DNA of 64,000 nt from Lingula anatina (taxonomy: Eukaryota > Animalia > Brachiopoda). The translations under genes were made by a program, and so were the position numbers. The notes under the pieces were generated by a model, which was not told where the DNA came from, did not search any database, and saw only the letters and a list, made by a program, of their open reading frames with translations. Below, in pieces: positions 14,961 to 64,000 of the stretch. Each line of letters opens with the position of its first letter. The first letter of the stretch is position 1. The stretch is from NCBI GenBank assembly GCA_051362555.1, contig CM120643.1, positions 1 to 64,000 of the forward strand. The letters are read 5' to 3'.

Positions 14961-17900
14961 TTAAGCACTGAAATCAATGTAAGACTCGGCGATATCTTCA
15001 TCGGCACCAATCTGCGCGTAGATATTTTCTTCTTGGCTCTGATTGGAATACTGCAGTTTTTGGTAATAGTGTTCCGCATTCATCTCAGAACAAGTGGTCT
15101 GATGTGGATGATCACCGCCCTCACGAGGCATGTAGTCGTCGTTTGGTTCTGAGTATATAGCGTCACGCACGCTCACTTCCCTGATGTTTTCTGTGTAACT
15201 AGGGTTGTTGAAAGCCCCCCTCTCCTTGGACTCGGACTGGGCATGTTTTCTGGAATAGAAAAACCGTTTTTAACGCTTATTGACTTATTGGTATTATGTG
15301 GATAAGAAAATAATGCCTTGAGTTTTAATTATCTACTATTACTTGAAACTGGAAATAGATATTGGTATTATGTGGATAAGAAAAAATGTCTTGAGTTTTA
15401 ATTATGGACTATTACTTGTAATTTGATTTGTTTCTTTTTGAAAATTAATTGAATTATTTTTTTGTTTTTAAAAAGTCACATCACGAAAATCCAAGGCTCA
15501 CTTAATTCATGGACTACGTGTTTGATTCTGTTAACTATTATTGTTCTCTTCATCTAACGTCTATATCATAGAGAGATATGCTTGTTGCATAGTATGTGTA
15601 ATGAAACGCTTATGTTATACATAAAGAGTTAATTGTATTAAAAGGTCATCAAACCACCAACACGAGCAGAGGAGTAATACATGTATGAACTAGATTGAAC
15701 TAGTAATACAATTAAATGTTCAAAATAATCTCTTTCTTTCCACATACATGAATCACACAAATACATGTAGCACTTAAACTGGTTCAGTTTCCCTTGAATT
15801 AAAACAATAACCTAGGAATACACAGTACCTTCTTTTGATGACCACTATCACAATGACAAGTATTGTCACAACCATCACCACTGCTGTCACGCCACCCACT
15901 ACAGCACCTAAAGTCCAATACAAATATATTGTTATGATTGTCATCAAGCATCACCACTGCTGTCACGCCACCCACTACAGCACCTAAAGTCCAATACAAA
16001 TATATTGTTATGATTGTCATCAACCACCACCACTGCTGTCACGCCACCCACTACAACACCTTAAGTCCAATACAGATACATTGTTATGATTGTCATCAAC
16101 CACCACCACTGCTGTCACGCCACCCACTACAGCACCTAAAGTCCAATACAAATATATTGTTATGATTGTCATCAACCACCACCACTGCTGTCACGCCACC
16201 CACTACAGCACCTAAAGTCCAATACAAATATATTGTTATGATTGTCATCAACCACCACCACTGCTGTCACGCCACCCACTACAGCACCTAAAGTCCAATA
16301 CAGATTCATTGTTATGATTGTCTTAAGCATGAAGTTGCTAGCGTCACTACAAATCTTCAAATATTTGCAAAGGTAAACACTCCAGAGGCTTTATGTACTG
16401 TGGTTTTTGGTTAATGTGATAGCCCAGTCCCTTTCTGGACGTGTCAGGCATGTCCATTGACGAGCGGTATGAAACTTGAACAATCTCCCAATTATAATTA
16501 AACACTTACGGAGACTTACAGAAGAACTGCATGCACTATAAATTAAACGTATCTACCTGTTGGAAGTGCCTGGCGGCTGCTCGGGTTGGACATATTGTCC
16601 GCATTACCTACAACCAAAACGAATGTAAACGTGTAATAAGGGGTACCGGAGGAGATCAACATTGGTCAGAATAAAGGGTACCGAAGAAGATCAGCATTGG
16701 TCAGAATTGTGCCGGAAGTGACGTGTAGTGGTGTAAGACGTAAAGCTGAGTGGTCATTTTTAGCTGGAGGTGAACGGGAGAGAAGACATGAACTCGGAGA
16801 AAAAAGCAGTTTTTCAAACAACATGGTAAGATGACATTTCTTCTTTACGCATTTTGGGCAGAGAATACTTGTAGAAATAATAGGCACATGATATGAAAAC
16901 GTGACACGGAACTTGAAGGTGCAAAATCGTGGTTAATTTGCAGACAACTTGTTTTGAAATACATGCTGCATCGACCGCCAGCGCGACAAAGAGCGTAAAG
17001 GGAAAGGAATTCCCGGGAGGCTATAAATCATTGTCATTTAGAATTTCGACATTTATATAATCTGATATGTCCATATCTAAGTATTTTTTGGGTGTTTTAT
17101 GGTATGTGCTGCAATTATAATGATGTTTTAGGGTCTTTGAAGGGCCTTGTGAAAACCAGGAAGTAGTTCGTAACTGACAACTGAGTCGTAGTGATCCACA
17201 ACTACTGTGCAAAGATGTATCTATTTTTAAATATTTTGACAAATTTTTTATCTTTATATGTCCATCTGACATGAAATTCCACACATATGATCACATTAAT
17301 ACACCTTTTGCACAGGGGTAGCCACAAATCAGTGACAAATGCCAAGACAAAGGTGACATTCTGACAGCCTATTATCAGGTAACATATTATATAAATGTCA
17401 AAATTCCACATGACAACGATTTATAGCCTCCCGGGAATTCCTTTCCCTTTACAATCTTTGTCTGGCGGTCGATGCAGCATATATTTCACAACAAGCTGTC
17501 TGCAAAATTAAGCACGATTTTGCACATTCAAGTCCCGTGTCACGTTTTCATATCATGTGCCTATTATTTCTACAAGTATTCTCTGCCCAAAATGCGTAAA
17601 GAAGAGATGTTATCTTACCATGTTGTTTGAAAAACTGCTTTTTTCTCCGAGTCCACGTCTTCTCTCCCGTTCACCTCCGGCTAAAAATGACCACTCAGCT
17701 TCGCGTCTTATACCACTTGACGTCACACTTAAGGCCCAATTCTGACCAATGCTGATCTCCTCCGGTACCAAAACAAAATGGAAAGCCTCAACTGAGGGCT
17801 TCGGCTTTGGAAGCATATTGGTTGAGCGGTGCGTGGAAATGATTGCCTCAGTGATCAAAATGCATAGTTAATGACTGCAAATGCACAGATATTATCAAGT

Positions 17901-18498
17901 TATTGACTTGTTGATCCAGGAAGATGATGTACCCCTTAAAATTGAAATATATTTGATAAAGATAATCTAAAAGTTCAACTAGTGAAAAGTCAGAGTGTTT
18001 TGTATGCTTACCCGTTCCTGCGTTAGATGTAGTAGATTCTGAACGAACAGTTGTAATTGATGCTGACCTAGAACTAGTTGTTGCTGGAAAACTAGAAGTT
18101 GTGATTGAAGCTGAAATAACAGTTGTACTCTTTATTGACCTGGTTTGAATAGTAGCTGCTATTGTTCGTGGTGTTATAATTGTCACTGGTATTGTTGTCG
18201 TTCTTGCTGATCCTGATCCGGATGACCAGCCCGAACCTGATCCTGATCCGGATGACGAGCCCGAACCTGATCCTGAACCTGATGACGAGCCCGAACCTGA
18301 ATCGCTCGAGCTCCCTGCAATACATTTTTTCATCAACAAATGTCAAACACATCTAAACTGCAAAAAATTACTGCTTTCGATTTAAGTAACATGATATTAA
18401 TGATATTCGTTTTAATGCAAGCTCATACTATATTAGTTGCTGTGGGTCGTGCGGCACTTGCAGGAAGCATTTTATCTTAAAAAAAAAAATTAAAAAAA

Positions 18499-18533
<35 letters not shown>

Positions 18534-21500
18534 TATCCGATAAACCTTCGGTTGGTTAATCCATTTTAACTCCGTGAATTACTTCAAATAGTCGTTACAG
18601 TGCAATGTGCAATTAACAGTACACGCACCTTCTGGGAACTGACAGACGAGGCCAACTGCCCTGCCGCTGCAGTTTACATCCTTCCAGTAGAAGCAGGGAT
18701 CCGAAGTGGTTTCTCCATAACAATGATCAGTGAAATGAAGCTGCAAGCAGCCAGTTGGAGCTGAGCTGGGAAAGGGGTACATTTCCTCGGAACGTGGGTC
18801 ATATCTAAAACCCCAGTTACTGAACATAATTGGATCACCTGTAGTAAGAGATTGTAGGCAGCAAATGAACAGCACAGAAAAACGTGACAGTAGACGAGAC
18901 CTAAGCAAACATATCGTGGCGAACAGTACGTCCTTTGTGAGGCATGACGATGGATACTTTATACATGATATCCTGTGTGAGTTAGGACGGGTACGTTATA
19001 TATGATATCCTGTGTGAGTTAGGAGGACGGTTACGTTATATATGATATTCTGTGTGAGTTAGGAGGACGGGTACGTTATATATGATATTCTGTGTGAGTT
19101 AGGAGGACGGGTACGTTATATATGATATTCTGTGTGAGTTAGGAGGACGGATACGTTATATATGATATCCTGTGTGAGTTAGGAGCATGGATACGTTATA
19201 TATGATATCCTGTGTGAGTTAGGAGGACGGATACATTATATATTATATCCTGTGAGTTAGGAGGACGGATACGTTATATATGATATCCTGTGTGAGTTAG
19301 GAGGACGGGTACGTTATATATGATATCCTGTGTGAGTTAGGAGGACGGGTACGTTATATATGATATCCTGTGTGAGTTAGGAGGACGGGTACGTTATATA
19401 TGATATCCTGTGTGAGATAGGAGGACGGATACGTTATATATGATATCCTGTGTGAGTTAGGAGGACGGATACGTTATATCATATCCTGTGTGAGTTAGGA
19501 GGACGGATACGTTATATATGATATCCTGTGTGAGTTAGGAGGACGGATACGTTATATCATATCCTGTGTGAGTTAGGAGGACGGATACGTTATATCATAT
19601 CCTGTGTGAGTTAGGAGGACGGATAGGTTATATATCATATCCTGTGTGAGTTAGGAGGACGGATATGTTATATCATATCATGTGTGAGTTAGGAGGACGG
19701 ATACGTTATATCATATCCTGTGTGAGTTAGGAGGACGGATACGTTATATATATCATATCCTGTGTGAGTTAGGAGGACGGATACGTTATATCATATCCTG
19801 TGTGAGTTAGGAGGACGGATACGTTATATATGATATCCTGTGTGAGTTAGGAGGACGGATACGTTATATCATATCCTGTGTGAGTTAGGAGGACGGATAC
19901 GTTATATCATATCCTGTGTGAGTTAGGAGGACGGGTACTGTGAGTTAGGAGGACGGGTACGTTATATAATAATAATAATATAATAATAATAATATTTATT
20001 TATAGTCTAAAATCCAAAATGTGTTCAGTAGACTTTGCAAAAATTATAAAATTCAAATTAAAAGAAAAATATTGCTTATGGTTATAAGATGAAAAAAAAA
20101 AGGAAAATGATTATCTAAAACTATGACTAAGAACAGTTTTTTTTAAGAAGTGTTTTTTCAAGAATTTAAAGATAATATTGTTTAAAAAGGTGGGTTTTTA
20201 GTTCCTTTTTAAAATGTCCAGGGTCCACAATTTGTCTAAGACTGATGGGTAAAATATTCCATTCTTTTGGTGCTGCAAATTTAAAAGCTTTATCACCGTA
20301 TGATACTAATCTTGCCTTGTAAGCCTTAAGAAGAAGGTGATCACCTGATCTGAGATTTCTTGATGGCACGTAGTGTAAAACAAGCTCATTTAAATAAGAA
20401 GGTGCAAGTTTATAAAATGCTGCATGTACAAATGTTAAAAGTTTAAATAAAATGCGTGCTCGTACAGGGAGCCAGTGCAACATCATTAAAACAGGAGTAA
20501 TGTGGTTGTCTTTTGGAGTGCGGGTCAGTAGGCGAGCAGATATATTCTGTACACGCTGTAGCCGTTTGATTTGTTCCTCTGAAGATCCATAAAGAAGGGA
20601 GTTGCAGAAATCAAGTCTTGATGTAACCAGGGCATGTATAACTGTTGCTGTAGTAGAGTCGGTTAAATGTTTTCGTAAAGAACCAACGTTTCTAATATTG
20701 AACATACATGTTTTAGATACGTTAGAAATTTGCCTGTTCATGGACAATGTACTGTCAAAATAAACTCCCAGATTTTTGGCATGAGATGAGACTTGTACCA
20801 TGCTGGCACCTATTGACATGCTAAGACTACGGGCAATGTTCTTATTGTGTGGTTGAGATATTACTAGGAATTCAGTTTTCTCGTCGTTGATCTTGAGTTT
20901 GTTTCTGATCATCCACCCCCTTATATCAGAAATACAGTTGGCTATTTTAGTAATTGATGAATCAGGGTTTCTAATATTGCAGGATGTGTAAAGCTGAGTG
21001 TCATCAGCATAAATATGATAACCAATCTCATGAAAACGAAGGATTGCACCAAGCGGTAAAGTATAAATATAAAATATGAGTGGTCCTAACACACTGCCTT
21101 GTGGAACACCAAAGACAAGTTGAGCTAATTCAGAGAGAAATCCGTCCACGCATACTTGTTGTGATCTGCCTGTGAGGTAAGAACGGAAAAGATTTAGTGC
21201 TGTATCTTTTATCCCGACAGTTTCTTCCAAAAATGACAGCAGTACCTGATGATCAACAGTGTCAAATGCGGCCGATAGGTCCAAGAGAACAAGTAACACA
21301 GCGGAGTGACTGTCCACCGCACATAGCAAATCATTTTTAATTCTAAGGAGTGCTGACTCGGTGCTATGATTCACCTTGCATGCCGACTGCATTTTCTCAA
21401 CCAAGTTATTTGCATCTAAGTGGTTGAACAATCTTGTGGCGATCACACACTCTACCACTTTAGACAGAAATGAGAAGTTAGATACAGGTCGATAATTTTG

Positions 21501-24500
21501 CAAGAGTTCTGCATTTAGGTTAGGCTTTTTCAGTAGTGGACGGATAATTGCAGACTTAAACAATTCAGGAAAATTCCCGGTTTTAAAGCAAATGTTTACA
21601 ATGTGAGTTATGAGACCAATGATTGCAGGGAGAATCTGGGAGAGCAGTGTTGTCGGCATAGGGTCAAGGAGGCATGATGTCTTCTTAGATCTAGAAATGA
21701 TTTTTGTCACCTCGTCTTCCGTTGCTTCCTCAAAGGCAGTAAGTAAGAGTGAAGGCTTCGGGAGAAGATTAGAGATCGGGGGATGTAATGGTGTTGCAAC
21801 TGTCTGTTCTAATGATTCAAGTTCGCCATATATTTTACTGATTTTTGCGATGTAGAAAGATCCCATGCTGTCAGCTAGGTCTTTCAAAGCCGTTGAGGGT
21901 GGGTGCGCTACGCGTTTGTTCTTACCCATAAGACTATTAACAGTTGTAAACAATGCTTTTTGGTCACCGTCACACGCGTCTATCATCTCTGAATAATAAG
22001 TTTCCTTAGCTGTTTTGGTAAGTTGGTTAACACGGTGACATTCCTCCTTGTGGCGCTGGTGGTGAATGGTTAATTTGCTTCTTCGCCACAGATTTTCTGC
22101 CTGTCTGCGATCCCTCTTTGCAGCAAGAATATCATCATTAATCCATGGTTGAAGGTCTCTCTGAACCATTGCTTTTGCTTTCAAAGGTGCCAACTGGTCC
22201 AATGACTGGGACAAAATTTGGTCGTAGTACATGACACATTCATTCTGATCACAGTTCAAAAGGTTCAATTCCTTAATTTTGGTAGACACTAAGTTATGGA
22301 GTTCGCTGATGTCAATGTCTTTTATTTTTCTGTATGACACTTTGTCTTTTTTCGGGTGGGGTTTGCCACATTGAAGATCAGCTTGAATGATGTGATGATC
22401 AGAAATTAGATGGCTCACTACACAGTTATTAACTAGGGCATCATCCTCCCTAGATAGGACTAAATCTAAGGTGTGGCCACGCACATGCGTGGGACCTGTG
22501 ACATGCTGGACTAATCCAAATGAGGTTAAAAGAGCTGTGAATTGCTTAGTTTCAGTGTTTTCGGCCTTTTCCCAATGTAAATTCATATCCCCAGCGATTA
22601 ACAATTTTCCCTTCAGTGGCCCCAGATATTCAAGAAGCTCACTAAATTCAGTTAAAAAGGAAGATTTGCGTATTCTGTTTGCCTTTGAAGGTGGTATTCT
22701 GTATATGATAAGGATGCGAAGTGTCTCTGAAATAGCTCTCGCCAATACTTCAATATATTCAAATGAGCTGGTTTCTACTACTTTAGGGAGCTGTTTTATT
22801 GCGAAAACATTCTTTGCCATGAGTGCCACACCCCCTCCTCGTCGATCAGTCCGTGGTATTTGGATACACTGATAACCCGTTGGAATCAAACTTGCTTCTA
22901 CTGACTGTTGAATGTCTGGAGATATCCATGTTTCGACCATGCAAACAATGTCAGTGTTATTTTCGTTGATGTAATCCCGTATAATAGCTTCCTTATTGCG
23001 CACTGATCGGCAGTTCATGAGTGCTAGCTTTACTAATGGTACAACGTTTTTGTCAAGCAAAGGCACATTTATTAAGTTTTTAGATTGTGCTCCTGTTTGG
23101 CTGTGAGTAAGACCAGTTTTTGGTATTATCTGAGATTCCTTGTTGGGTGAGTAAATTACTTTAATAGGCTTCCTACGACTGGTTCCACCTCGTTGGCCTC
23201 TAATTTTTCTGTTGATGTTCAGGTCTGTAATTAGTGTCCAGAGATGTTCAGGTAGGATATATTTCCTCTGGGCATGGATACAAAGTAGGTGATCCCTTCC
23301 ATATTTGTGCTTGATGGTATCATTAATTCTGCTTTCCCCAAGGCACATTGTCACAGGCAAGTCAGGAATGAGCAGTGTTGAGCAAATATACAGCATAAAA
23401 GTTCTCAGCATCAGAAATTGCAGCATATGTCTGACTATGTGAGGTTCAGTAGATATAAAATGTCACAAAATGTTCATCAAATCCTTGACAAGTTGAAGGC
23501 AGGCTGATACACAACAGTCCTGGAAACTTTAGAAAGCTTCAGTCCACAAAAACTAAAACATAAGCTTATTTCACACAGAGAAATTGCTGAAAAATCTAAG
23601 AGCCACAAACAGCCAGGTCAGCACAGTAAAGTGGCGCCCTCATTCATATCCTGTGTGAGTTAGGAGGACGGATACGTTATATATCATATCCTGTGTGAGT
23701 TAGGAGGACGGATACGTTATATATGATATACTGTGTGAGTTAGGAGGACGGATACGTTATATATCATATCCTGTGTGAGTTAGGAGGACGGATACGTTAT
23801 ATATCATATCCTGTGTGAGTTAGGAGGATGGATACGTTATATATGATATCCTGTGTGAGTTAGGAAGACGGATACGTTATATATCATATCCTGTGTGAGT
23901 TAGGAGGACGGGTACGTTATATATGATATCCTGTGTGAGTTAGGAGAACAGATACGTTATATATCATGTCCTGTGCGAGTTAGGAGGACGGATACGTTTT
24001 ATATGATATCCTGTGAGTTAGGAGAACGGATACGTTATATATCATGTCCTGTGCGAGTTAGGAGGACGGATACGTTTTATATGATATCCTGTGAGTTAGG
24101 AGAACGGATACCTTATATATCATATCCTGTGTGAGTTAGGAGGACGGATACGTTATATATCCTGTGTGAGGTATGATCGAGTGTGGATACCTTATATATC
24201 ATATCCTGTGTGAGTTAGGAGGACGGGTACGTTTTATATGATATCCTGTGTGAGTTAGGAGGATGGATACGTTATATATGATATTCTGTGTGAGTTAGAA
24301 GGACGGATACGTTATATATGATAACCTGTGTGAGTTAGGAGGACGGATACGTGTTATATATTATATCCTGTGTAATCGACTAGGAGTGTTTCACAAAGAA
24401 TCTAACGTCTTAGCTTGGCGTACTTACCGTAGTCGACGCGCACGAGAAACTTTTCAAGAAAAGGAGGTGTAAAATTTCTAAAGTTTCACAGGACATGACG

Positions 24501-27500
24501 TTTCATGGCCTCCTTTGGCCGAGAACGATCATTTATCAATAACAAAGATCAGTCAAAACGTAAACAAAGTTTGTTTTTGAACTTTATTGATAAGTTTAAC
24601 TTCAATGCATCTTCAAAGCAACAGTAAAATATAAGCTTGTCTTGTCGCACATCTAGCGGTCAAAAACATAAACAAACCCGCGATCGGCTGGGTGAAGGTG
24701 TATTTCATTTTTTTTTAATATTAAATAAATGTCAGTGCTATTCAAGGACATTATAACACAATATCTTGAAGGAGGTATGTTCTTTCCAAATTTTTGATGT
24801 TTATGCTCTCATTTACCGAGTTTTAGTTGAGCTCGCCGACTTAAGTCTCCTCCCGAGGAGGCTGGACATCATCGATTAGCAGCTAAGAAAAAAAACGACG
24901 TAAGCGACCTTTTAGATTCTTTGTGAAACGACTTAATTACGTAGGTAACCAAGCTCTTAGTCAGGGAAACCGACTTAAGTTTTTTTGTGAAACTGGGGCC
25001 TGTGTGAGTTAGGAGGACGGATACGTTATATATCATATCCTGTGTTACATGTAGGTATGATCGAGTGTGGATACCTTATATATCATATCCTGTGCGAGTT
25101 AGGAGGACGGATACCTTATATATCATATCCTGTGTGAGTTAGGAGGACGGATACGTTATATATCATATCCTGTGTGAGTTAGGAGGACGGATACGTTATA
25201 TATCCTGTGTGAGGTATGATCGAGTGTGGATACCTTATATATCATATCCTGTGTGAGTTAGGAGGACGGATACCTTATATATCATATCCTGTGTGAGTTA
25301 GGAGGACGGATACCTTATATATCATATCCAGTGTGAGTTAGGAGGACGAGTACGTTATATATCATATCCTGTGCGAGTTAGGAGGACGGATACGTTATAT
25401 ATCCTGTGTGAGGTATGATCGAGAGAGGATACCTTATAAATTCCGAGGAAGTAATTAAACTATACTAAAAGGGGGCACATAATAGATTTCATATGTAAGA
25501 TAACAACAAAGTACAAGTGAAAGTGTCTTCTCACCATGAGCTGACCAAGTCCAGTTTGTTCTCGTGGCTCCAATCCAGAAGTCCTCCAATCCATCCTGTT
25601 CCAGTCTCTTGGCCATTCGTATAATATTACTATGGACAGCATTGTTGTGGACAGTGGCCAGGTCACCTTGAAGGTCCAGGTGACACTCTCTTCGCGCCTC
25701 GTACCACGTCTGAGAGCTGGTGTTCAGGTGATAACAGACGCCCTCTGTAAAAAATTCGTTGGGTGCTTGGCACTCGTGCTCGTCAACTGAGGGAGAAAAG
25801 ACGTTCCTGGTTAAGTATCGTAATGTTCCGTACAATTAAAATTAAATTGAATTCTATTACCGTACAATTTTTATAGAACAGAATGGAGTGTTATTCAATT
25901 TGCTAAGTACACGGGATCAGGGAGGTCTATATTCTTTATAAAATGATTGAAAAATGGTATGGAATGGCAGTTATCTAGGAACCGTAGTCCGTTCCCCATT
26001 ACTTTGTACAGGTGACATTCGTCCCATATACTAACCCCAATGTTCCAACTAATTCTAACCTGTACTTAGCATATGGGAGCCCGGTCGTTCAGGACTACGA
26101 CTACATGTACCATTCCTGTCAGACCTGGCATGAGCACTTTCAGATATATAGCTAACATGTACTGATGCCCAAGACATTTACCTCTTTGAAAAAGCTCCCT
26201 CTGCACATTGTTTCACATGACCTATTTAAATTGTACAACATTGCCCTGTCTTAAATGTGAACAAGTACAAAAGCACTCACCAAAGCGCAGGCAGACAAAC
26301 CACAAATAGTCCGTACACTCCCGGCTCGTCCACTGGTACTGTAGGTCCGCCTGCATAGCCACACATGCCTGTCTGGTCGTCCACCGAGACTGTGACGGTG
26401 CCCATCTAGACCAGCCTGCAGGGGAGAAATCATCTTGACAAATATCATCTTATATATTTTTAATGTATTTTTGGATTACCCAAGCCAACTTGAGCATTAT
26501 AACAGATCACAATGAGGTAAATTTCACTATAGATCTTAAACTTTGATCCGATTATCTGAAGCGCGCGGTGAGAAACACTAAGGGAATTGTCCTTGCCTAA
26601 GCGTTGACTGGTTCAGAACTAACCTAAGCCACGGCTATCCCAGTGTTGACTAGCCCAGGACTTACTTAAGCCATGGCTCTCCCAGTGTTGACTGGCCCAA
26701 TACTAACATAAGCCATGGCTATCCCAGTGTTGACTGACCCAATAATAACCTAAGCCATGGCTATCCCAGTGTTGACTGGCCCAATACAAACATAAGCCAC
26801 GGCTATCCAAGTGTTGACTGACCCAATACTAACCTAAGCCACGGCTATCCCAGTGTTGACTGACCCAGTACTAACCTAAGCCATGGCTATCCCAGTGTTG
26901 ACTGGCCCAGTACCAGGAAGTTGACATGTTCTGTGTTCCTCCTAGCCATACACTGTAACTATGAAGCCATGGTGCCAAGTCCTGGTGTGTTTGTTGTAGT
27001 AGCCCCTCTAATGTCCATTCTGTTTCCCAGTCCTCCACGCTGGCTAAGTGGCCGCCCAGTCTCCGACAAGTCTTCCTGGCATCAAACCATGTAGAGTTTG
27101 GGTAGACGATGACCTGGTAGCACATGCCATTGTGACACTTGGAGGCGCCTGTTAACAACATATTTTGGCTTAATTAAAAAAAATTAAAAAATGTTAAACA
27201 TTTAAAGATGTAACAGGTGCCAAATAAAAATCTTGCAACAGTGATGTCAGGGATCAGGGACAGTGATGTCAGGCCTAAGGAACAGTGATGTCAGGGATCA
27301 GGGACAGTGATGTCAGGGATCAGGCACAGTGATGTCAGTGATCAGGCACAGTGATGTCAGGGATCAGGGACAGTCATGTCAGAGATCAGGGACAGTGATG
27401 TCAGAGATCAGGGACAGTGATGTCAGGGATCAGGGACAGTCATGTCAGGGATCAGGGACAGTGATGTCAGGGATCAGGGACAGTGGTGTCAGAGATCAGT

Positions 27501-28814: not shown

Positions 28815-29140
28815 GTTTATAAGTCAGTTAACAATATTACCAGACACGGTATCTTCTACCTGTACAGTTATTGGATTATAACCGTTCTATAATGTCGTAG
28901 TACAGAAGTACGGACAGCCTCTCCAAGTATATTTGTCTTTTAGAATTTACCAAAACTATCGATATGGGGGTTATTGTCACAGTTAATTTTCAAAATGGCA
29001 GTAAACAAACTCCTAGCTGTGCTTTTGTCCGTTTTGTGGACTTTAAATCAAATAAATATGCACACTGTAAACCACGCTCTGTTGCACGGTAACTCTCAGT
29101 ATGTTTCCTTGTACACATCCATGTCAACCATAAGTCTCTC

Positions 29141-33800: not shown

Positions 33801-34155
33801 CTTTTCAATGGGTAATCATATTTTCCTATTATTTCATCCCTCTTTTTTATAATCATTTTCTATTATTTTTTTTGTTACTGCAAAGTAAATAAAATCCATG
33901 GCACTACTAGTACAAGTTAAATTTCTATCAATCTATTCACTGATGTAGTCATGTTTATTTTTAGGGAAGCGTACGTGTCTGGGGGAGCAGTTAGGAAAGA
34001 TGGAATTGTTCCTGTTCTTTACCTCCCTTATGCAAAGATTTAGTTTTCATCTACCAGAAAATACCCCCCCTCCAAAACTGGAGGGCAAGTTGGGGTCCAC
34101 GTACGTCCCCCCGGATTACGAGCTCTGTGTCACCCTGCTGCCCTCTACCGGGTAA
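30839..34155 (+). CDS. Cytochrome P450, clan 2 (CYP2-like), 528 aa, 3 exons
   Basis: Exons 30839-31223, 32801-33811, 33965-34155 (1587 nt, both introns phase 1). N-terminal anchor, PPGPWGLP, I-helix DLFFAGGETVTTTL, K-helix EIQR, meander PEIFDP, heme motif FSMGKRTCLG. Confidence 0.95.
31280..32310. mobile_element. ~1.03 kb non-autonomous DNA transposon in P450 intron 1
   Basis: Perfect 23-bp TIRs AGAGAGTTTCGGCAGGACGTTAA / TTAACGTCCTGCCGAAACTCTCT. Flanks AAT / TAT. Confidence 0.85.
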
Positions 34156-34335
34156 TTGTCTGCGCCTGTGGGCTCTCATGGTGTCTGCGACTGCTGCCCT
34201 CTACCGGGTAATTGTCTGCTGCTGTAGACTCTCATGGTGTCTGCAACTGCTGCCTCTAACGGGAAATTGTCTGCGCCTGTAGACTCTCATAGTGTCTGCG
34301 ACTGCTGCCATCTACCGGGAAATTATCTGTGTGCT
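34127..34335 (+). repeat. 56-bp tandem repeat of the P450 final codons, stop and start of 3' UTR (~4 copies)
   Basis: ctgctgccctctaccgggtaattgtctg at 34135 (real stop) and 34191, degenerate at ~34247 and ~34302. Confidence 0.85.
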
Positions 34336-34449
34336 CTCTTGGTATCTGTGCATCTTTCCACAATGACACATCGGTTATTTTTCTGTTATAATAAAATCCA
34401 CGACCACTTTATATATATCATTTTAACGTGTTGCGTTTTCATTAATTCC

Positions 34450-40188: not shown

Positions 40189-40358
40189 TTTATAAAGCTG
40201 CAATATGAATTGTAATGAATTAAAAGCGCAATGTATGCAAACCATGAACGTGAAACAATACAGCCTTCTCTGTAGACTTAAGTACATACGTGTAGTAGTC
40301 AATAATAGGGTCAATTCACCAATGTTATGATCTTTTTTTTTTCAATTTCCAGAGCAAC

Positions 40359-43300: not shown

Positions 43301-43806
43301 ATGGGTTAGGTGGGTTCCAGGCAACATGGCGTGTAATGGCTGGCATAGGTAAAGAGTTCTTTAAAACACTTATTCATGGTGCTTCTTTCACTTTATAAAA
43401 CTAGAAAAGCACTCCGAGAGCGCAGACCTCCGCCAAGGCAGTAATTTTTTTATTATTATTGATTATTGATTGATTATTGATCTAGATCACCACCAAAAAC
43501 TAATCATCTGTTCCTTGGCCCACTTCTGACAGTACCTGAAAATTTCATTATAATCGGTCCATAACCTTTTGAGTTATGTTCATGACAGACATGATTATTG
43601 ATTATTGATTGATTATTGATCCAGATCGCCCTAGATTTTGACTCACTTAGTTCAGACTAATCCTAACCATTATAAATATATGGAGAGCGGACATTCTGTT
43701 ACATGGACCCTCAGTTTCGTTACACCGCCCCTAAGACGCACTTTAACACCAAATACTATTCGTCTTAGTGAGTTTTTCTCGTTATAGTTGTGTGTGTGTG
43801 ATGTGT

Positions 43807-43847
<41 letters not shown>

Positions 43848-52800: not shown

Positions 52801-54394
52801 AGTGTATTGTTGGAGACCAGAGTCCAAGACCCCCAAGGAAACTCTGTCTAAAAGTATGGAGAGTAAAATGAACATGTTGTGTTTCCGTAGAGTGTTAGTG
52901 AACTGTTGGAGACCAGAGTCCAAGACCCCCAAGGAAACTTTGTCTAAAAGTATGGAGAGTAAAATGAACATTTTGTGTTTCCATAGAGTGCTCCAATGCC
53001 ATAGAGGACTATCCTCCAGTGGCTCGACGTCGTCTGGACTCGTTCATTCCTGGCTCCCGACTGAGTGGTACCAGTCACACTGAGGACGTCCACGAGGCTC
53101 ACGTGGTGTGTGGGCGGTGTCACGTGACGGTTCCCCGCTCTCTCTATTGGCTCACCACAGGAATCGATCCGCAATGTGAGTAGGGTTTAAACATGAGTGG
53201 GAAGTTTTTATGCCAAGTTTTTATGGGGCTTGAAAATTTGAAAATTGCTCTCTCCATGCTTGATTTTTTGTCCCAGGTTGTTATGCAAAGGCCTCACGGA
53301 CTTAACTTCGTCGTGTATATATTAAATTTGTGTTCCATCTTTGAAGATTTATTCAGTTTCGGACAATGCTATTTAGTAAAGAATTGGCCTTCTACATATC
53401 TGATATATTGTACATCAATGGCTCTGATTACTCTTGAAGATTTTGGTGCGGTTTAACCAAAGCTGCAACAGACTGGAACTGCTTGTACTCAGTAATGGAT
53501 ATTTCAAAACCTTTTGAAAAACATTTTCATTTAGTCCGACAATTATTGTTTGATTTCACAGGCAGTATATTTTGACGTTTACATATATTAGACTGTCGAG
53601 ATCAGCAATTTTCTATGAGTAGCACTTTATCTTATTCAATCAATTTAGAAAAAAGAAAATGATACCCATTTACCTTGGTGGGTACATTATTGTTTATTTG
53701 GAAGATAAATTGGGTGTCTTCAGTGATTTTGGTAATTGACGTCCACATCGTCAATCAACAGTGATCTTCATTTAAATTTACAGCAAAAAGTTACATTATT
53801 TGGCTGTTCCTGGTTACTCTGTGTTTCGTATATAACGTGTGGAGTATTCCTCTGCGGGCTACGTTCCCATACCAAACAGAAGAAAACCTCAGTTACTGGC
53901 TCAGCATGGACTATGCCTGTGATATCATCTACGTCATCGACATCATATGTGTGAAAACCAGGATCAAATTTCTAAGAGATGGACTTCTAGAGGTAGGTGC
54001 ACGTCTCTGACTACAGGTACGGTCAATTCTGTGTTCTAGTGTTCCTGTGCGGTTGTTATATGCCTAATTAACTGTAAATTGGAATATAGAGCTGGCATCC
54101 CTGGTCAGAAAGCAGTGTGTGTGTGTTTGTGTGTGTATGTGTGGGGGGGGGGGGGGAGAGGTTTTTCCTTATGCTTTCGTACTGCTACATATTTGTATTT
54201 ACTATATATTCAACATAGCAAGTCTTCATTGCAAAGCATTTAAATTGTATGTCTTTTCCTAATGTGGTATATGTGAAGATGTGAGTGTATGTTTAGGCAG
54301 ATCACCAGGTAACAAGTCTTACCTGTGGACATGGAGCAGGCCCCAGCCTAATCCAGGCAGATAATACATCCTTCCTGGCTCAGTATAATGCTCG

Positions 54395-54441
<47 letters not shown>

Positions 54442-56808
54442 TAATTATTCCCAATTGCACCTTGGTCTAAAAGACTTTAGAACCCATCGAATTTTTATTG
54501 GGACCGCAACATATACTATTCCTGATCCTACAATAATATGTGCTATATGTACCAGCCACGCTTTATATTAGTGTCCTTTATTAAGAAAGACTATTCCTGA
54601 TCCTACAATAATATGTGCTATATGTACCAGCCACGCTTTATATTAGTGCCCTTTATTAAGAAAGACTATTCCTGATCCTACAATAATATGTGCTATATGT
54701 ACCAGCCACGCTTTATATTAGTACCCTTTATTAAGAAAGACTATTCCTGATCCTACAATAATATGTGCTTTATGTACCAGCCACGCTTTATATTAGTGTC
54801 CTTTATTAAGAAAGACTATTCCTGATCCTACAATAATATGTGCTTTATGTACCAGCCACGCTTTATATTAGTGTCCTTTATTAAGAAAGACTATTCCTGA
54901 TCCTACAATAATATGTGCTTTATGTACCAGCCACGCTTTATATTAGTGTCCTTTATTAAGAAAGACTATTCCTGATCCTACAATAATATGTGCTTTATGT
55001 ACCAGCCACGCTTTATATTAGTGTCCTTTATTAAGAAAGACTATTCCTGATCCTACAATAATATGTGCTATATGTACCAGCCACGCTTTATATTAGTGTC
55101 CTTTATTAAGAAAGACTATTCCTGATCCTACAATAATATGTGCTATATGTACCAGCCACGCTTTATATTAGTGTCCTTTATTAAGAAAGACTATTCCTGA
55201 TCCTACAATAATATGTGCTATATGTACCAGCCACGCTTTATATTAGTGTCCTTTATTAAGAAAGACTATTCCTGATCCTACAATAATATGTGCTATATGT
55301 ACCAGCCACGCTTTATATTAGTGTCCTTTATTAAAGGGATAATAACTCTTTGTTTCGGCCAAAAAATGAATTTTCCTGGAGTAAACAACAATTTTCCCAT
55401 ACTTACCAATGGTTAATGAATCCATTTTTACATTCAAAGTTAGTCCCTGGTTTTTTTCTAAAAACTTTGGTTTTTTGTTAAAATCTCTTAAGAGAATTTA
55501 ACAGAGTATAGCCATCAATGTAGGTCATGTGATCTAAAGACAAGCTCAGATATCAGAAAAAATAGCTATAACTGCCGTTTTTGTGGTAAAACAGAATATA
55601 TTATATTTCTATGAGTTGTTCACAATGTTTTTATTGTGAAATATAGATCTCATACGAAGAGTTATTATCCCTTTAAGAAAGACTATTCCTGATCCTACAA
55701 TAATATGTGCTATATGTACCAGCCACGCTTTATATTAGTGTCCTTTATTAAGAAAGACTATTCCTGATCCTACAATAATATGTGCTATATGTACCAGCCA
55801 CGCTTTATATTAGTGTCCTTTATTAAGAAAAACTATTCCTGATCCTACAATAATATGTGCTATATGTACCAGCCACACTTTATATTAGTGTCCTTTATTA
55901 AGAAAGACTTGCTCCTTCCTTGTACTTACATCTTCTGTCATGTGTAAAAACTTTTTTAATGTTGTGCATAAAATACATGTAACCAGTATGCTACAAACAA
56001 GGCAGCAAAGCTGTCAAATGTACAGACAAAAAACAGAAAATAAAGATGCAAAATAGATCATTTTGTCAATTTTGATGCAATGATAAATAATGCTTATAAT
56101 AGCACTGTCAGTCAACACTGAATTTTAATCATGCACAACAGGTAACATGGTCAATAACAGGAGTGGACCCAGAGATATTTTCTGACAGTATTCCAAAGAA
56201 TCTATGTTGATCCATCCTCCTTTTTGATGGTCTTCCAACAGAAAAAAATAGATACCAGTCAATATAAACTTAAAAACCTGACCATCTTCCGGAAGACCCA
56301 GTAGATGGTCTCAATCCACCCCTTCAATAAGATTACAGTTTCAGGACCATGAGATTTCAAATTCACACGATGAAAGTCCCAATATTTGAAAAATTATGAC
56401 AGTGCATAAAATAATATTACATAATGTTTAATGATATAAAAACCAATACAACTGCTTATGTGGAAATACAGAAAATATAGAAAATGTGCAGATGCCAGTG
56501 TTTGAGAAAAAATTAATAAGGAAAACATAACAAAACTAGAAAAGCACTATGAGAGCGCAGACCTCTGCCAAGGCAGCAATTTTTGATTATTATTGATTAT
56601 TGATAGATTATTGATCCGAACCACCACTAAAAACTAATCATTGTCCTCCTTGACCCACTTCTGACAGTTTCTGAAATTTCATCAACATTGGTCCATAACT
56701 TTTAGAGTTATGTTCATGACAGACAAACAGGAGTGAAAACATAACCTCCTTGGCAGAGGTAAATGTAATTCCAATGAAGCTGCTATTCAAACTTTTAATC
56801 TTTGAATT

Positions 56809-56869
<61 letters not shown>

Positions 56870-59800
56870 TTATTTGCAATATTAAACAAAATTTACCTGC
56901 ATAATTATCACTGCTTCGTTATTATTAATCTAGCAGAGAGCTTAACCTTTGGGAGTTTACAGGGAAACATCAACAAGTGTGCTTTATGTAATGTCATTTA
57001 ATTGCCTATTAATTAGGCAAATGACTTTACAACTCCGAAATTAGCCTAGTGATACCCAAGGGAAATTTACAGACTGACCCTCTCAAAGGTCTTCAGGCCC
57101 ATAAGTCACACCTTAAGAAAAGCACAAAACAATAATGCACAAAATAGGAGACTACCAATTCTGATGCAATAATATGTTATGTTTAACTGCACAGTCAACA
57201 TCAAATTTTAATTATGCACAACAGGTAACACCGACGAAAGTAAAAGCATAAGGCTTCAGGCCCATCAGAGTTCAAGTTTATACTTAGCAAGTGCCAGAAT
57301 GAGAAAAATGAAAATTTCACAAAAAATGCATAAATTTAATAAAAATGATAATCTCATAGAGCTGGTTTGCTAATATGACCTGTATGTCAATCCTAAGAAT
57401 CATTCTTGTAAGACTGGTTGTAAAAATGTATAACTTCCAGAAAAAGAAGACAATTAGACTGCTTTTCCAACTAAGGCTGCATTTTGGTCCTGTATTTCTT
57501 TTTTGAAAGTTTGGCAATCATAAGTAACGTGGTTTTCCCATAATGGTCATCATAGCAGCAGCACCCAAATTTGTGTTCTTCTATTCTGATGCAATATTAC
57601 ATAATGGTTAACAGCATTATGACCGTCAATTTTTACTTATAAAATAAACGTATCATGGATTTTCAGAAAATGTGACTAGCAAAGGTCTTCAAGCCCGTGG
57701 AACTTCAAAGTCACACCTTGAAAATGCCAATATGTGAAAAATTAAATCTTCACAAAAAAAAAACTGTTTAACTGGCAGTAAGAATTACCAATCAGACTGC
57801 ATTGCCTACTGAAGCTGTAATTTAGTCCCATATTTCTTTCCTGTAAGTTTGAGAACAGTAAGTGACATGGTTTTTCTTAAATGGTCATCATGGGAGCAGT
57901 GCCCGAAATAGTTTTTTTTTTTCAAAATTTGATGCAATATTACATTATGTTTAACAGCATAATGACCGTCAATTTTAATAAAATATTAGTATCATGGATA
58001 TTCAGAAAATGTGACTAGCAATGGTCTTCAGGCCCATGGAACTTCAAAGTCACAACTTGAAAATGCCAAAATGTAAACAAGACAGCACTGTTCTGAAATG
58101 TTTTTTTCCCCATTTTTAACAATTTTTAACATAAAACAGAAATAACAGTTTACTGCCATTTTTATATGATCAACTAAGAAAATTGATGAGATGGGAAAAA
58201 TATCAATAGAGCAGTGTTAAATGTCCAATTTCTTCCATTCTGAGATTCTGAACATAGTGAATGATTGAATCTGACAAACTGCAATGATATGAGTTTATTT
58301 CCATTTTTGAAACTTTATTACACAATACACGATGACAAGTTTACCATCATTTTTACAAAATCAACTAACAATGTTGTAAAGGTGCAGGAAATGTCAAACA
58401 AACACTTTTACGTATCTTATTAATTAAATAATGAAACTGTTAACATGCCTAAGAATTGAATCTGAGGAAATGTGAAAAAACAGCATAACTTTTTAAATAA
58501 TGGCCTGATTATGCTAATTTTTTTACTCGACCTGCGTTTTAGAAGGATTGGCCACTCCTGTGAGTATAATGGCAATTGGCTTATCTGTTTTTCTTATATT
58601 GTGTTTACAGTATTACATATATGCTGAAAAGTGAAAACTAGCTGTACAATTACTAACATGATATGAATAACCCTATTGAGTTTGAGAATAATAAGGCACT
58701 GTTATTCATCTTTAGCATTAATGTAAGCGTTACACAAAATTTTCTTTTGTAAACTTATTTTCAATATTAAATAACATTTACCTGCATAATAATCATCGAT
58801 TCCTAATTATGTGACACAGTTAAGAGAGCTAAACCTATGGACTTTACAATGAAATCTCAATGTGTGTTTATGTAATCTCATTTAATGGCCACTTGAAAAT
58901 CAATTAAGCAAATTATTTTATAACCCTGAAATAACTTGAAAATCAATTAAGCAAATTACTTTATAACCCTGAATTAACTGCCTACTATCCATATACATTT
59001 ATTGCACCAAATAGCACTCTACTGCATTGCTTTCAAAACAGAAAACAATTACAATGGTTTTCCAACACAAGCTGCACTTCAGTAAGGTCTTTTCAGTAAG
59101 GTTGATTATCATAAGTAACATGGTTTTCCCTTAATCGCTATCCTGGCAGCAGTGTCCAAAGTAGGGTTTTCTTCAAGTTTCATGCAATATAACATAATAC
59201 TTAACAGCAATAAACCATCAATTTTTTATTAAAAAAATAAAAGTATCATGGATATTCAGAAAATGTGATACGGAAAGGTCTCCAAGGACATGGAAGTTCA
59301 GAGTCACACTTTCAAAATGCCAAAATGTTAACAAGAGATAACTGTACTGAAATGATTTTCTTTCCATTTTCAACACCTTTTTTACATAAAACAATAATCA
59401 ATTTACTGTCATTTTTATATGATCAACTAGGAAAATTGTTGACATAGGAAAAATATAAATTGAACAATTTATAATGTCCAATTTGCTCCATTTGGAGATT
59501 CTGAACATAGTGAATGATTGAATTTGACAAACTGCAATGATGAGTTCCTTTCCATTTTTGATACTTTATTACACGCTGCACTATAATAGGTTTACCGTCA
59601 TTTTTATAAAATCAACTAACAATATTGTTAAGAAGCAGAAAATGTTAAAACAACACTTTTACATATCCAATTAGTTCCGTAATGAGACTGTTAACATGCT
59701 TAAGAATTAAATCTGAAGAAAAACCACTTATATACAAAAAAGGCTAATAACTTCATCAAAACTTAACTGATCAAGCTTATTTTCAAACTTGATCTGTATA

Positions 59801-60048
59801 CTGGTCAGATTGATCACTCCTGTGAGTTGCAAGACAAAAGGCTGATTGGTTTTCCTTAAAATGCGTTATCAGTGTTGCATGTATGCTGAATAAAGGAAAA
59901 AACAGCATTACTTTTGTTAAAATAGTCCAATCAAGCCAATTTTCAAACTTGACCTGCGTATTATAAATATTCACCAGTTCTGTAAATTTCAATCCAAAAG
60001 GAGAAACATTTTTACACTTATCAAGTTATTGGTGTTACAAAAGTGCTG

Positions 60049-60081
<33 letters not shown>

Positions 60082-63056
60082 CAGGATAACTTTCATAAAC
60101 ATTGCCCGATCTTGCTGATTTTCAAACTTGACCTGCGTATTATGAATATTCATTAGTTCTGTAAGTTTCAAGCCAAAAGAAAAAACAGTTTTCCACTTGT
60201 GTGTTTTCAGTGCTGCATATATGCTGAAAAAAGTGAAAAAACAGCATAAATTCCCTAACAATGACCCAATCATGCTGATTTTCGAACTTGACCTGCGTAT
60301 TATGAATATTCATCAGTTCTGTAAGTTTCAAGCTAAAAGGTAAAACAGTTTTCCACTTATCGTGTTATCGGTGCTGCATATATGCTGAAAAAAGTGAAAA
60401 AAACAGCATAAATTCCCTAATAATGATCCAATCATGCTGATTTTCGAACTTGACCTGCGAAATATGAATATTCATCAGTTCTGCAAGTTTCAAGCTAAAA
60501 GGTAAAACAGTTTTCCACTTATCGTGTTATCGGTGCTGCATATATGCTGAAAAAAGTGAAAAAACAGCATAAATTCCCTAAAAGTGACCTGATCATGCTG
60601 ATTTTCGAACTTGACCTGCGTATTATGAATATTCATCAGATCTGTAAATTTGAATACAAAATGTAAAACGGTATTCCACTTATCGTGTTATCGCTGAGTG
60701 CACGGCGACGACGGCGACGACGGCGACGCCAGACGCAGATGATGGCTATATGTACAGACACATCTGTGTCTGTACATAAAAAGCCTTTTTCACTAACAAC
60801 AGAAGTCATTTTAAGTAACCATATTTTACCAGTGGTTTTCTATTGAAATGTTTTTGTTCTTTGATATATATTTCAAACGAACCTATTTCAGGGAGATCCA
60901 AAGGAAATGAGGAGGAACTATTTTAGAAAGTTGGAGTTTAAGGTATGCTTAGGTTGTTACAATCACTTCAGTATGCATACAGGTATGGTAAACACTGCAC
61001 ATATACTTGAATATACGATCTTGTTTTAATTATGTCTTTTTGAAGTTCCCATGCCCAGGGAGGTGCGGTGAAGTGTTTTATCAACTTTCTAAAATCTAGT
61101 CCTCTTTCTAGCTGGACATGCTGTCTCTGCTACCATTAGATCTCCTGTACTTTGCTGTAGGGTTCAACTCATTACTGCGGGCACCAAGGTATTTTAAGGT
61201 AAGCACAACATTGACAAAATATTTTAAGTTATTTTAATATTAAATTGACCTGGGTTTTAGATGACTTTACAAAATGACAAGTTTTAAAATGTATCCCTTG
61301 TAAGGCGTTTCCATTTTTTCTGGCATATTTTTTCAGATCAAGACATTTCTAGAGTTCTACAACCGCTTTGATCAAGCTGCCAAATCTCCCCATTTAATCC
61401 GTGTTGCCAAGACGATGACGTACATGGTGTATCTGATCCACGTAGAGACATGTGGTTACTATGCGGTGTCTGTCTATGAGGGAATAGGGAGCAATAAATG
61501 GGTGTACAATGGCGAGGGGAACGCGTGAGTTGACACTGAAGATAACTTGCTATTCATAGATTTAGCTTGAGGAGATGGCTATCACTTCAGCCCAACCCCC
61601 GATAATCAGTCAGTCTTACAAGACATCTATCTTTTCAGCCCTCCAGATAGGGCTGGGCTGAGATAATGGCTATCGTATCAACCCGCTAGACAGTCAGTCT
61701 AAAAAGACGGCTATCACTTAAGCCCTCAGGGATAAGTTAGTCAGAGGAGATTGCCAACATTTCAGCCCTCGAGACAGAGTCAGACTTAGAAGCTAGCTAT
61801 CATTTCAGCCATCCAGACAGACTCAGCCATAGCACACTGCTATCGTTTAGATTGGTGTGGGGGGTTCTGGGTTATATGGCTTGTAAAAAGTGCGATACAA
61901 GCAGGTCTTGTTATAAACTCCACCAAAACGATTACTGTAGCAGTATGTTTTTGGTTCCATTTGTCTGTCTGTCTGTCTGTCTGTTAGCAACATTATGTAA
62001 AAAGCTATGGAGGCAATTTGATGCAATTTTCAAAATAGGTTTAATAGAATTGGGCTAGATTTGGGGGATGGTCTGTCGTTTTTCAAATCATTGCTACTAA
62101 ACTAAACAAAACTAAACCGAACGGTTAAACATAATGTGTTTCCTCTTGCTTCATTTTTCATTTTATTACGAATTTGAGGGGTGGATAAGTAGGTCAATAT
62201 TGCCACCAAGCGTTTGAAAAGGTTCAGTTTGAGAAAATTTTTGCATGTGGATTTAATTGACACTAGTGGGCTTGATTTGGTCTAAAAGAGCAATTTAAGT
62301 TCACAAATAGTCCTACATGGTCTTAAACCATGAGTAAGACTATTTCTGGTCTAACAGCCAATTAAGTTGTCTCCCCTTACACATTCTCCTATTGTGAGCA
62401 GAGGTGTCCTCTATTGTGAGGGGAAGTATCCCCCATTGTGAGGGGAGGAAACTGCTTGACCACTTAAGTAGATGTTACATCATTTTTGATCTTAAAAGCA
62501 GATTCAGTCCATTTTAAGACTACTGCTGTAATATTTAAGATCGTGTAAGATCACTTGTGAACTTAAACTGCACTTTAAGAGCAAATCCAGCCCACTAGTG
62601 TGAGTTGTGTAAAAATCTGGAAGTAACAATGTGTATGCATAATAGGCAGGTCTACACGCCTTGACTCTGGATGTAATGTATCTATGACGTGTGACTACAG
62701 GATCTGTAAATAGATCGAAATTTGGTTTTGGTTTGTTTTTTAAACATGTGTTAATTAATTCTGTAAAACCTGTGGAAATGAGTAAAAGGGAATTGTAATA
62801 AACACCATGTCCTAGGGCCTTCAACATAGTCGTATCGCTTAATTAAGTATATACTGGATAGCACGTGAAATTATGGACTGTTATGAACGCTTTGTACAAT
62901 TGTGTTTGTTAAAGGTACGTGAGATGTTTCTACTTGGCCACCAAGACATCGACCTCTATTGGTAACAACCCTACACCCACCAACACTCTGGAGTACGTGT
63001 TCATGACTGTCTACTGGCTGTCAGGGGTCTTTGTCTTTGCCTTGCTGATAGGACAG
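40359..63056 (+). CDS. CNGB: Cyclic nucleotide-gated channel beta subunit (TAX-2/CNGB-like), partial: N-terminus to S6; C-linker/CNBD beyond the window
   Basis: Phase-consistent exons 40359-40674, 48118-48376, 51319-51461, 52987-53175, 53784-53992, 60892-60942, 61112-61198, 61337-61524, 62915-63056. Motifs [23 protein letters not shown] (resembles the CNGB1 N-terminal CaM site), [45 protein letters not shown], pore [14 protein letters not shown]6 [11 protein letters not shown]. The two 5'-most exons are less certain. Confidence 0.92.
41158..41506. mobile_element. Kolobok-type MITE (TTAA TSD, AGGG...CCCT termini), copy 1
   Basis: TTAA|AGGGATAATAACTCTTC...GAAGAGTTATTATCCCT|TTAA. Near-identical to 55335-55672. 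Confidence 0.88.
41648..41821. mobile_element. ~170 bp MITE, copy 2 (family of 13342-13507)
   Basis: Ends cggtgtaa...tacaccgg; reverse-complement match to copy 1. Confidence 0.65.
43060..43348. repeat. 44-bp minisatellite, ~6.5 copies
   Basis: Unit gtaatggctggcatgggttaggtgggttccaggcagcatggc(c/g)t. Confidence 0.93.
43399..43727 (+). mobile_element. Truncated HINE-like element fused to half of the CCGGTGTAAC MITE
   Basis: actagaaaagcactccgagagcgcagacctccgccaagg to ~43627, then ccctagattttgactcac...gttacaccg. Confidence 0.65.
44765..47770. repeat. 70-bp minisatellite, ~43 copies, in CNG intron 1
   Basis: Unit gtatgtgattgtatctgactgtaccaggtccttggagatagagactgagatagaatgtatactcttatag. Confidence 0.98.
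48660..49290. repeat. 45-bp minisatellite with degenerate flanks
   Basis: Unit cacatgactgtcacatgacgagagcacgacttggtagacgtgtaa. Confidence 0.93.
51437..51645 (+). repeat. 43-bp minisatellite made of CNG exon-3 3' end plus donor (5 copies)
   Basis: CTCTG|GTAAGT with GT at 51462, 51505, 51548, 51591, 51634. Confidence 0.95.
52439..52664. repeat. ~51-bp tandem repeat, ~4 copies
   Basis: Unit cccggacccttgggttatctcattggcaactgaacatacaatacaatacaa. Confidence 0.9.
52780..52990 (+). repeat. 96-bp tandem repeat containing the CNG exon-4 acceptor (3 AG|AGTG sites)
   Basis: ttcc(g/a)tag|AGTG with AG ending at 52794, 52890 and 52986. Confidence 0.9.
54516..55909. repeat. 75-bp minisatellite, ~14 copies, interrupted by a Kolobok-type MITE
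   Basis: Unit actattcctgatcctacaataatatgtgctatatgtaccagccacgctttatattagtgtcctttattaagaaag. Confidence 0.96.
55335..55672. mobile_element. Kolobok-type MITE, copy 2, inserted at the TTAA of a minisatellite unit
   Basis: ctttaTTAA|AGGGATAATAACTCTT...AAGAGTTATTATCCCT|TTAAgaaagac. The empty site is visible in neighbouring units. Confidence 0.92.
55995..60782 (+). mobile_element. Large (~4.8 kb) Helentron-type non-autonomous element with internal tandem repeats
   Basis: 5' subterminal atgtacagaca (56018). 3' hairpin tatgtacagacac-atct-gtgtctgtacata (60749-60778) preceded by (acggcg)n. ~120-bp 'aacttgacctgcg' repeats at ~59900-60700 and longer internal duplications. Confidence 0.7.
56534..56763 (+). 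mobile_element. HINE-like element, copy 3, nested in the larger element
   Basis: 5' cctctgccaagg and 3' ccttggcagagg subterminal inverted repeats; (acag)n near the 3' end. Confidence 0.72.
61570..61845. repeat. Degenerate tandem repeat (ggctatcacttcagccc...cagtcag)
   Basis: The motif recurs about six times at roughly 45-60 bp spacing. Confidence 0.55.
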
Positions 63057-64000
63057 GTGAGTGTTCAACGACTGTGTTCAGTGTGACTTTAACCTATGCA
63101 TGTGTTCATGACTGTCTACTGGCTGTCAGGAGTCTTTATCTTTGCCTTGCTGATAGGACAGGTGAGTGTTCAACGACTGTGTTCAGTGTGACTTTAACCT
63201 ATGTTTTCATGTCTGTCTACTGGCTGTCAGGAGTCTTTATCTTTGCCTTGCTGATAGGACAGGTGAGTGTTCATAGACTGTGTTCAGTGTGACTTTAACC
63301 TATGTGTTTATGACTGTCTACTGGCTGTCAGGAGTCTTTATCTTTGCCTTGCTGATAGGACAGGTGAGTGTTCATAGACTGTGTTCAGTGTGACTTTAAC
63401 CTATGCATGTGTTCATGACTGTCTACTGGCTGTCAGGAGTCTTTATCTTTGCCTTGCTGATAGGACAGGTGAGTGTTCATAGACTGTGTTCAGTGTGACT
63501 TTAACCTATGTGTTTATGACTGTCTACTAGCTGTAAGGAGTCTTTATCTTTGCCTTGCTGATAGGACAGGTGAGTGTTCAACGACTGTGCTCAGTGTGAC
63601 TTTAACCTATGCATGTGTTCATGACTGTCTACTGGCTGTCAGGAGTCTTTATCTTTGCCTTGCTGATAGGACAGGTGAGTGTTCAACGACTGTGCTCAGT
63701 GTGACTTTAACCTATGCATGTGTTCATGACTGTCTACTGGCTGTCAGGAGTCTTTATCTTTGCCTTGCTGATAGGACAGGTGAGTGTTCAACGACTGTGC
63801 TCAGTGTGACTTTAACCTATGCATGTGTTCATGACTGTCTACTGGCTGTCAGGAGTCTTTATCTTTGCCTTGCTGATAGGACAGGTGAGTGTTCAACGAC
63901 TGTGCTCAGTGTGACTTTAACCTATGCATGTGTTCATGACTGTCTACTGGCTGTCAGGAGTCTTTATCTTTGCCTTGCTGATAGGACAGGTGAGTGTTCA
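62997..64000 (+). repeat. 101/105-bp minisatellite made of the CNG S6-coding exon end plus donor (10 donors in window, continues past the end)
   Basis: GGACAG|GTGAGT with GT at 63057, 63162, 63263, 63364, 63469, 63570, 63675, 63780, 63885, 63990. Confidence 0.97.

Follow-up and report, generated by a model that had tools for sequence, protein, structure and literature searches.

The closest described systems are the 'mirages' of amphioxus, which are known in Adh3, the globins BflGb6 and BflGb9, troponin C, and PGBD5. Splicing of these genes is described as normal and the copy number of the repeats as varying between haplotypes (PMC3087553, PMC3902484). In human F7, a 37-bp VNTR in intron 7 carries five to nine identical donors. 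The most upstream donor is the only one used, even though the others are functional; as in the Lingula donor arrays, the first unit spans the exon/intron boundary and pseudo-donors follow (PMC1557585). Internal tandem repeats at exon-intron boundaries can also form new introns in human duplicated genes (PMC2812944).

We analyzed a stretch of 64,000 nucleotides of the Lingula anatina assembly GCA_051362555.1 (contig CM120643.1, positions 1 to 64,000), here called the window. Its arrays resemble the amphioxus mirages in being exon-edge repeats with normal splicing, for which RNA was available at two Lingula sites. They differ in belonging to a brachiopod, i.e. a lophotrochozoan, and in that five lie within 48 kb of a subtelomere together with a stop-codon array. 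F7 is a single donor-side example in which scanning was proved by mutation, whereas Lingula adds two acceptor-side cases seen in sequence, one of them also covered by reads. Intron gain by tandem duplication of DNA bearing splice signals has reportedly been described in one study. This route and the human duplicated genes share with Lingula the tandem copies of splice-signal DNA at exon edges. They yield new introns or alternative transcripts, whereas none were seen in the Lingula reads at 51200-54100.

The arrangement is already known from the amphioxus mirages and the F7 VNTR, and Lingula extends it to a brachiopod. An earlier, sequence-only reading of the window had the anatomy right and missed this published precedent. 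Our literature search, which had most subscription journals outside its scope, found no repeat study of Lingula, no brachiopod report of such arrays, and no study testing across a whole genome whether repeats are enriched at splice sites.

Genomic setting and gene models

Three genes were modelled from coordinates and canonical splice dinucleotides:

1..9198, no strand assigned: telomeric hexamer array of 9.2 kb, which opens the window
14961..28814, minus strand: C-type-lectin type I membrane gene, 8 modelled exons (28751-28814, 26876-27148, 26281-26415, 25535-25786, 18629-18838, 18012-18314, 15829-15907, 14961-15249; all minus strand), 534 aa without stop
30839..34155, plus strand: cytochrome P450 gene, 3 exons, 528 aa, with a Pfam P450 domain
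40353..64000, plus strand: cyclic-nucleotide-gated channel beta-type gene, 9 exons in the window (40359-40674, 48118-48376, 51319-51461, 52987-53175, 53784-53992, 60892-60942, 61112-61198, 61337-61524, 62915-63056; all plus strand), 528 aa without stop, extending past the window

The lectin gene product consists, in order, of a signal peptide, two lectin domains, a Ser/Thr-rich stalk, a transmembrane helix, and a tail. Pfam Lectin_C matched three of the four lectin exons scanned; exon 5 had no Pfam match. The lectin boundaries were derived from the open 534-aa frame and the continuity of the lectin domains across exons 2 and 3. Homologue searches restricted to longer proteins gave one weak match for lectin exon 2 and none for channel exon 4, and were of no help with the boundaries.

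The channel contains an ion-transport domain (Pfam), and its best matches in the structural database are solved beta subunits. The spliced model aligns to all 13 homologues found and is colinear with them and with the public Lingula model; one channel exon gives a 100% match to a protein record of Lingula anatina. Both public Lingula channel models (P0001, P0015) begin at the exon 6 methionine and miss 377 upstream residues. The gene is longer than these models, since RNA reads join exon 2 to exon 3 and exon 5 to exon 6. P0001 diverges exactly at the 63056 array, and its tail is not encoded in the window. Because an acceptor at 40353 lies 6 nt ahead of the ATG of the first coding exon, an upstream non-coding exon is expected, for which candidate donors were seen near 39406 and, in the first unit of a 54-nt array, near 37190.

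Tandem arrays at exon/intron boundaries

Arrays were called with Tandem Repeats Finder. The claim of the sequence-only reading that five of them straddle exon edges in two genes was borne out: each of the five positions it gave is the first or last intronic base and lies inside an array, and its copy counts (6 and 3 for the acceptors; 7, 5, and 10 before the window ends for the donors) match ours. The five arrays are located 6-55 kb from the telomeric hexamer array:

15862..16322, minus strand: 76-nt unit, 6 copies; lectin intron 6 end followed by 36-46 nt from the transmembrane exon
26603..26913, minus strand: 42-nt unit, 7.4 copies; 38 nt from the 3' end of lectin exon 2, followed by 4 nt of intron
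51431..51659, plus strand: 43-nt unit, 5.3 copies; 31 nt from the 3' end of channel exon 3, followed by 12 nt of intron
52787..52990, plus strand: 96-nt duplication, 2.1 copies; covers the end of channel intron 3 and reaches 4 nt into exon 4
62997..64000, plus strand: 105/101-nt unit, 10 or more copies; 60 nt from the 3' end of channel exon 9, followed by about 45 nt of intron

As in mirages, the unit spans a real exon/intron boundary, clearly so in four cases and by an overlap of 4 nt in the fifth. In the 76-nt array the real acceptor (15907) is preceded by five copies, and in the 42-nt array the real donor at 26876 is followed by six. In the latter, the bases adjoining the GT drift, and G is found at position -1 in four of the seven copies. 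The 43-nt array holds the real donor at 51461 and four copies, with two variants alternating, whereas the 105/101-nt array follows the real donor at 63056 and presents 10 donors before it leaves the window. At the 96-nt duplication two acceptor-like sites precede the real acceptor (52987), giving three in all. This case is marginal, as it is a single duplication between two near-identical 12-nt flanks, the real acceptor being one of them. The position of the junction within the unit varies, from 4 to 60 nt of exon. In the columns compared, identity of the copies to the real unit ranges from 86 to 98%, with patterned variants. GT or AG is invariant across the copies of all five arrays, which hence retain potential cryptic sites in the manner of mirages.

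The earlier observation that the functional copy is always exon-proximal and that the arrays grow only into the intron holds, but it is dictated by geometry. A duplicated donor unit gives exon-tail/intron-head repeats of which the first site closes the exon, so that the rest become intron; acceptor arrays are the mirror image. One-sided growth was discarded as independent evidence on these grounds. Use of a distal copy breaks the frame in five of five cases, and alleles using it would be purged.

Splice site choice

Raw RNA reads of the same species label from four runs were placed on 51200-54100, with X15 and X18 yielding no reads. All nine reads across the 51461-52987 junction (five and four in two runs) use the exon-proximal donor and acceptor, and splicing at this authentic pair is normal, as in mirages. 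No decoy joint was found at 51200-54100 at a threshold of three reads and none occurs among the nine junction reads, a number that excludes only decoy use above about 30%. Depth is zero over 51491-52460 and 52752-52945, decoy donors included, where this applies to all four runs. Four further reads span the junction of 53175 with 53784; loose read ends extend into exons 2 and 6. Neither the RNA joints at 51200-54100 nor the channel model, colinear with its homologues, revealed a new intron spliced out between duplicated signals.

Some other features of these reads were recorded. A few intronic reads of run X12 cover a 51-nt array at 52461-52751 (depth at most 1.8) and may derive from unspliced RNA or from another repeat copy. 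In channel exon 4, single-base differences at 53001, 53069, and 53132 in both covering RNA runs most likely represent alleles.

For the donor at 63056 the support is annotation rather than a read count. The public Lingula model is identical to channel exons 6-9 at 151 of 151 residues; at 63056 it carries the residues of the first copy, not those of the decoys, and then continues in register with the homologues. In total, RNA supports two of the five boundaries, the public model one, and the open reading frame alone two. It appears extremely unlikely that the arrays are assembly artefacts or that the modelled boundaries are wrong. Such a view could draw on the lectin boundaries, which were read from the open 534-aa model and domain continuity; however, divergence from the real unit reaches 14% among the copies and is patterned, unlike in false duplications, RNA confirms the boundaries at 51461 and 52987, and the public model confirms that at 63056. 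In addition, DNA runs from three studies contain 0.55-0.83 of the sampled words of 51200-54100, which speaks to the presence of the region only.

The sequence-only reading had also considered that the arrays act as tunable splicing elements. In this case, selected alternative or recursive sites or NMD-coupled poison extensions would let copy number set gene output. Every decoy does retain GT or AG and its use would disrupt the frame in five of five cases, repeat length alters splicing at some human loci (PMC10078293), and exon-intron boundary repeats can give alternative introns (PMC2812944). However, decoy joints were absent from nine of nine reads, which are too few to exclude minor or decay-sensitive use. 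The invariance of the dinucleotides is expected from within-array homogeneity alone (joint probability 0.23, with 4-28% of columns variable), and decoy GT/AG conservation was rejected as a sign of function for this reason. Moreover, the F7 pseudo-sites are functional but unused (PMC1557585) and amphioxus mirages are reported to leave splicing undisturbed (PMC3087553, PMC3902484). Taken as a whole, we regard tunable elements as very unlikely.

Reading through into a decoy leads to a stop within a few codons in four of five cases, as had been pointed out before: after 1, 8, and 9 codons at the donors and after 1 at the decoy acceptor 52891, compared to 37-60 for the 76-nt decoys. A stop within 9 codons is found at 3 of 3 array donors versus 5 of the 15 others (p 0.07); these five are among seven such donors in the channel gene. 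Early stops were rejected as a sign of design, this difference from the window's other donors not being significant.

Other arrays in the window

The window contains 27 arrays with a period of at least 20 nt, which correspond to 24 independent events once arrays interrupted by insertions are merged, and these make up 28% of its non-telomeric DNA. No splice site is touched by 19 of the 24 events. Three arrays outside splice junctions had been singled out in the sequence-only reading:

34135..34329, plus strand: 56-nt unit, 3.5 copies; last 21 P450 coding nt with the stop codon plus 3' flank
37155..38183, plus strand: 54-nt unit, 19 copies; donor-like word, at no modelled exon
44760..47769, plus strand: 70-nt unit, 43 copies; in channel intron 1, donor-like word, nearest modelled site 348 nt away

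The repeated P450 stop codon is real, the 56-nt unit including 21 coding nt, whereas none of the four P450 splice sites carries an array. Here the edge of a coding sequence suffices and a splice site is not needed. The 54- and 70-nt units do contain donor-like words, as proposed, but not in excess over unit shuffles: 2 of 38 tests gave p<0.05 (binomial p 0.57). Both came from the 54-mer, and one concerned the opposite strand. A donor-like enrichment of non-junction arrays was considered, with 6 of 38 tests at p<0.05 against intron background, and dropped in view of the 2 of 38 against unit shuffles. On the minus strand (37222-38319) the 54-nt array is stop-free in one frame over 366 codons, encoding a Lys/Tyr/Pro-rich 18-residue repeat that lacks methionine; this frame probably reflects chance.

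Further repeats were seen in the introns. A 40-nt array of about 52 copies (18931-19938, 23644-24373, 25069-25403) nearly fills lectin intron 4, where it is split by a LINE and by a 0.6-kb insert; on the gene strand its unit has a pyrimidine-rich stretch with AG at the end, but is not a copy of the real acceptor. The LINE is apparently intact, with an uninterrupted 1098-codon frame (20169-23462, minus strand) for endonuclease and reverse transcriptase domains. A 394-nt inverted repeat of 91% identity in lectin intron 6 (16677-17769) is a likely miniature transposon. Two copies of a 365-nt dispersed element share 88% identity (41153-41511 and 55330-55677), the second splitting a 75-nt array. 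Channel intron 5 contains AT-rich degenerate long repeats (57158-60696; 67-79% identity), with a 162-nt array of 3.8 copies at the end. The sole array wholly within an exon is an in-frame 30-nt coding repeat of three copies in the Ser/Gly linker of the lectin (18207-18300), and its period is divisible by three.

Overlap of arrays and splice sites

The five overlaps had been set against about 33 modelled splice sites; the five stand, but the denominator is 36, i.e. 32 in the two genes and 4 in the P450 gene. For the null, the 24 events were collapsed to seeds and placed at random on the 41-kb collapsed sequence, and frame-breaking seeds lying wholly inside exons were barred. With uniform placement and all 36 splice sites, 1.21 overlaps were expected compared to the five observed (p 0.006). 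Masking of mobile and dispersed DNA left 22 events and an expectation of 1.4 (p 0.011). Among arrays with at least three copies, 4 of 19 overlapped versus 1.0 expected (p 0.015), and inclusion of start and stop codons as edges gave 6 of 24 versus 1.35-1.56 (p 0.002-0.003). With at least 10 nt of overlap required on each side, 3 were found versus 0.95-1.08 expected (p 0.066-0.089). The 17 non-coding, non-junction arrays average 42% GC versus 36% in the background (p 0.001), exons having 50%. A GC-weighted null raised the expectation to 1.72, with p 0.024 for five overlaps and 0.087 for four, i.e. without the marginal 96-nt case.

Hence, overlap above a permuted null, which the sequence-only reading had proposed to test genome-wide, was recovered within this window as a modest excess (p 0.006-0.024), but not under stricter rules (p 0.066-0.089). 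The excess at splice sites is modest, three- to four-fold, and is not abolished, in one window that was picked because the pattern showed. It likely reflects the GC preference of the arrays, protection of an exon-anchored array from deletion, and the after-the-fact choice of the window.

A mutational process that targets exon boundaries was also proposed. For instance, co-transcriptional splicing or R-loops could entail breaks or stalled polymerases at these sites, with subtelomeric recombination amplifying the products. The overlap of 5 of 24 arrays versus 1.2-1.7 expected speaks for it, as do unrelated units in two genes on opposite strands. These come from a single window chosen post hoc, and with stricter overlap or without the marginal case p is 0.07-0.09. 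The position of the unit relative to the junction is inconstant (4 to 60 nt of exon), the sequence offers no mechanistic evidence, and the stop-codon array, which shows the edge pattern without a splice site, requires no splicing. Targeting of exon boundaries by mutation seems unlikely.

Proposed origin of the arrays

The null that the sequence-only reading itself had named, local duplication filtered by selection, fits the data best. The arrays are probably neutral, mirage-type minisatellites that stem from ordinary local duplication in a repeat-prone subtelomere and are tolerated through splice-site choice. They likely arose like their 19 neighbors; minisatellites make up 28% of the region. 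Duplication between short flanking repeats is a general model of minisatellite birth, and such flanking repeats are visible for the 76- and 96-nt units. Slippage or repair acting between short repeats on either side would duplicate a stretch of 40-100 nt, which unequal exchange would then amplify; the other 19 arrays would have the same origin.

Selection would mostly purge duplications confined to exons. Edge-spanning duplications may persist with the original exon and site intact and the spliceosome taking the exon-adjacent site; such seeds would survive because the authentic site still wins. On the donor side this would occur by first-donor scanning, as demonstrated in human F7. On the acceptor side, exon definition, an established concept, with the downstream donor seems the likely reason. 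A rare decoy product would carry a premature stop. An exon-anchored array may also outlast others, as deletions into the exon would be removed by selection. Against this neutral origin, the excess persists under every null with the 4-nt rule (p 0.006-0.024; p 0.002-0.003 with start and stop codons as edges), and early stops are found at all three array donors (p 0.07). Its read-level splicing evidence comes from the nine reads at 51461/52987, which exclude only decoy use above roughly 30%.

Implications

This window shows neither a new mechanism nor a new function. Closely spaced as they are, the Lingula arrays offer a natural set of cases in which splice-site choice can be tested, among them acceptor decoys that are transcribed before the real site. 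They also are a warning for annotation, as copied exon halves resemble extra exons and the public channel models are fragmentary. There is only a small chance that minisatellites truly arise or survive preferentially at exon edges in marine-invertebrate subtelomeres, via splicing- or transcription-coupled breaks. A genome-wide excess at exon edges, which one window cannot show, would suggest that splicing and tandem duplication are linked through mutation, and intron birth by tandem duplication would become measurable. If exon edges were such hotspots, they would continually provide cryptic splice sites from which introns could be gained.
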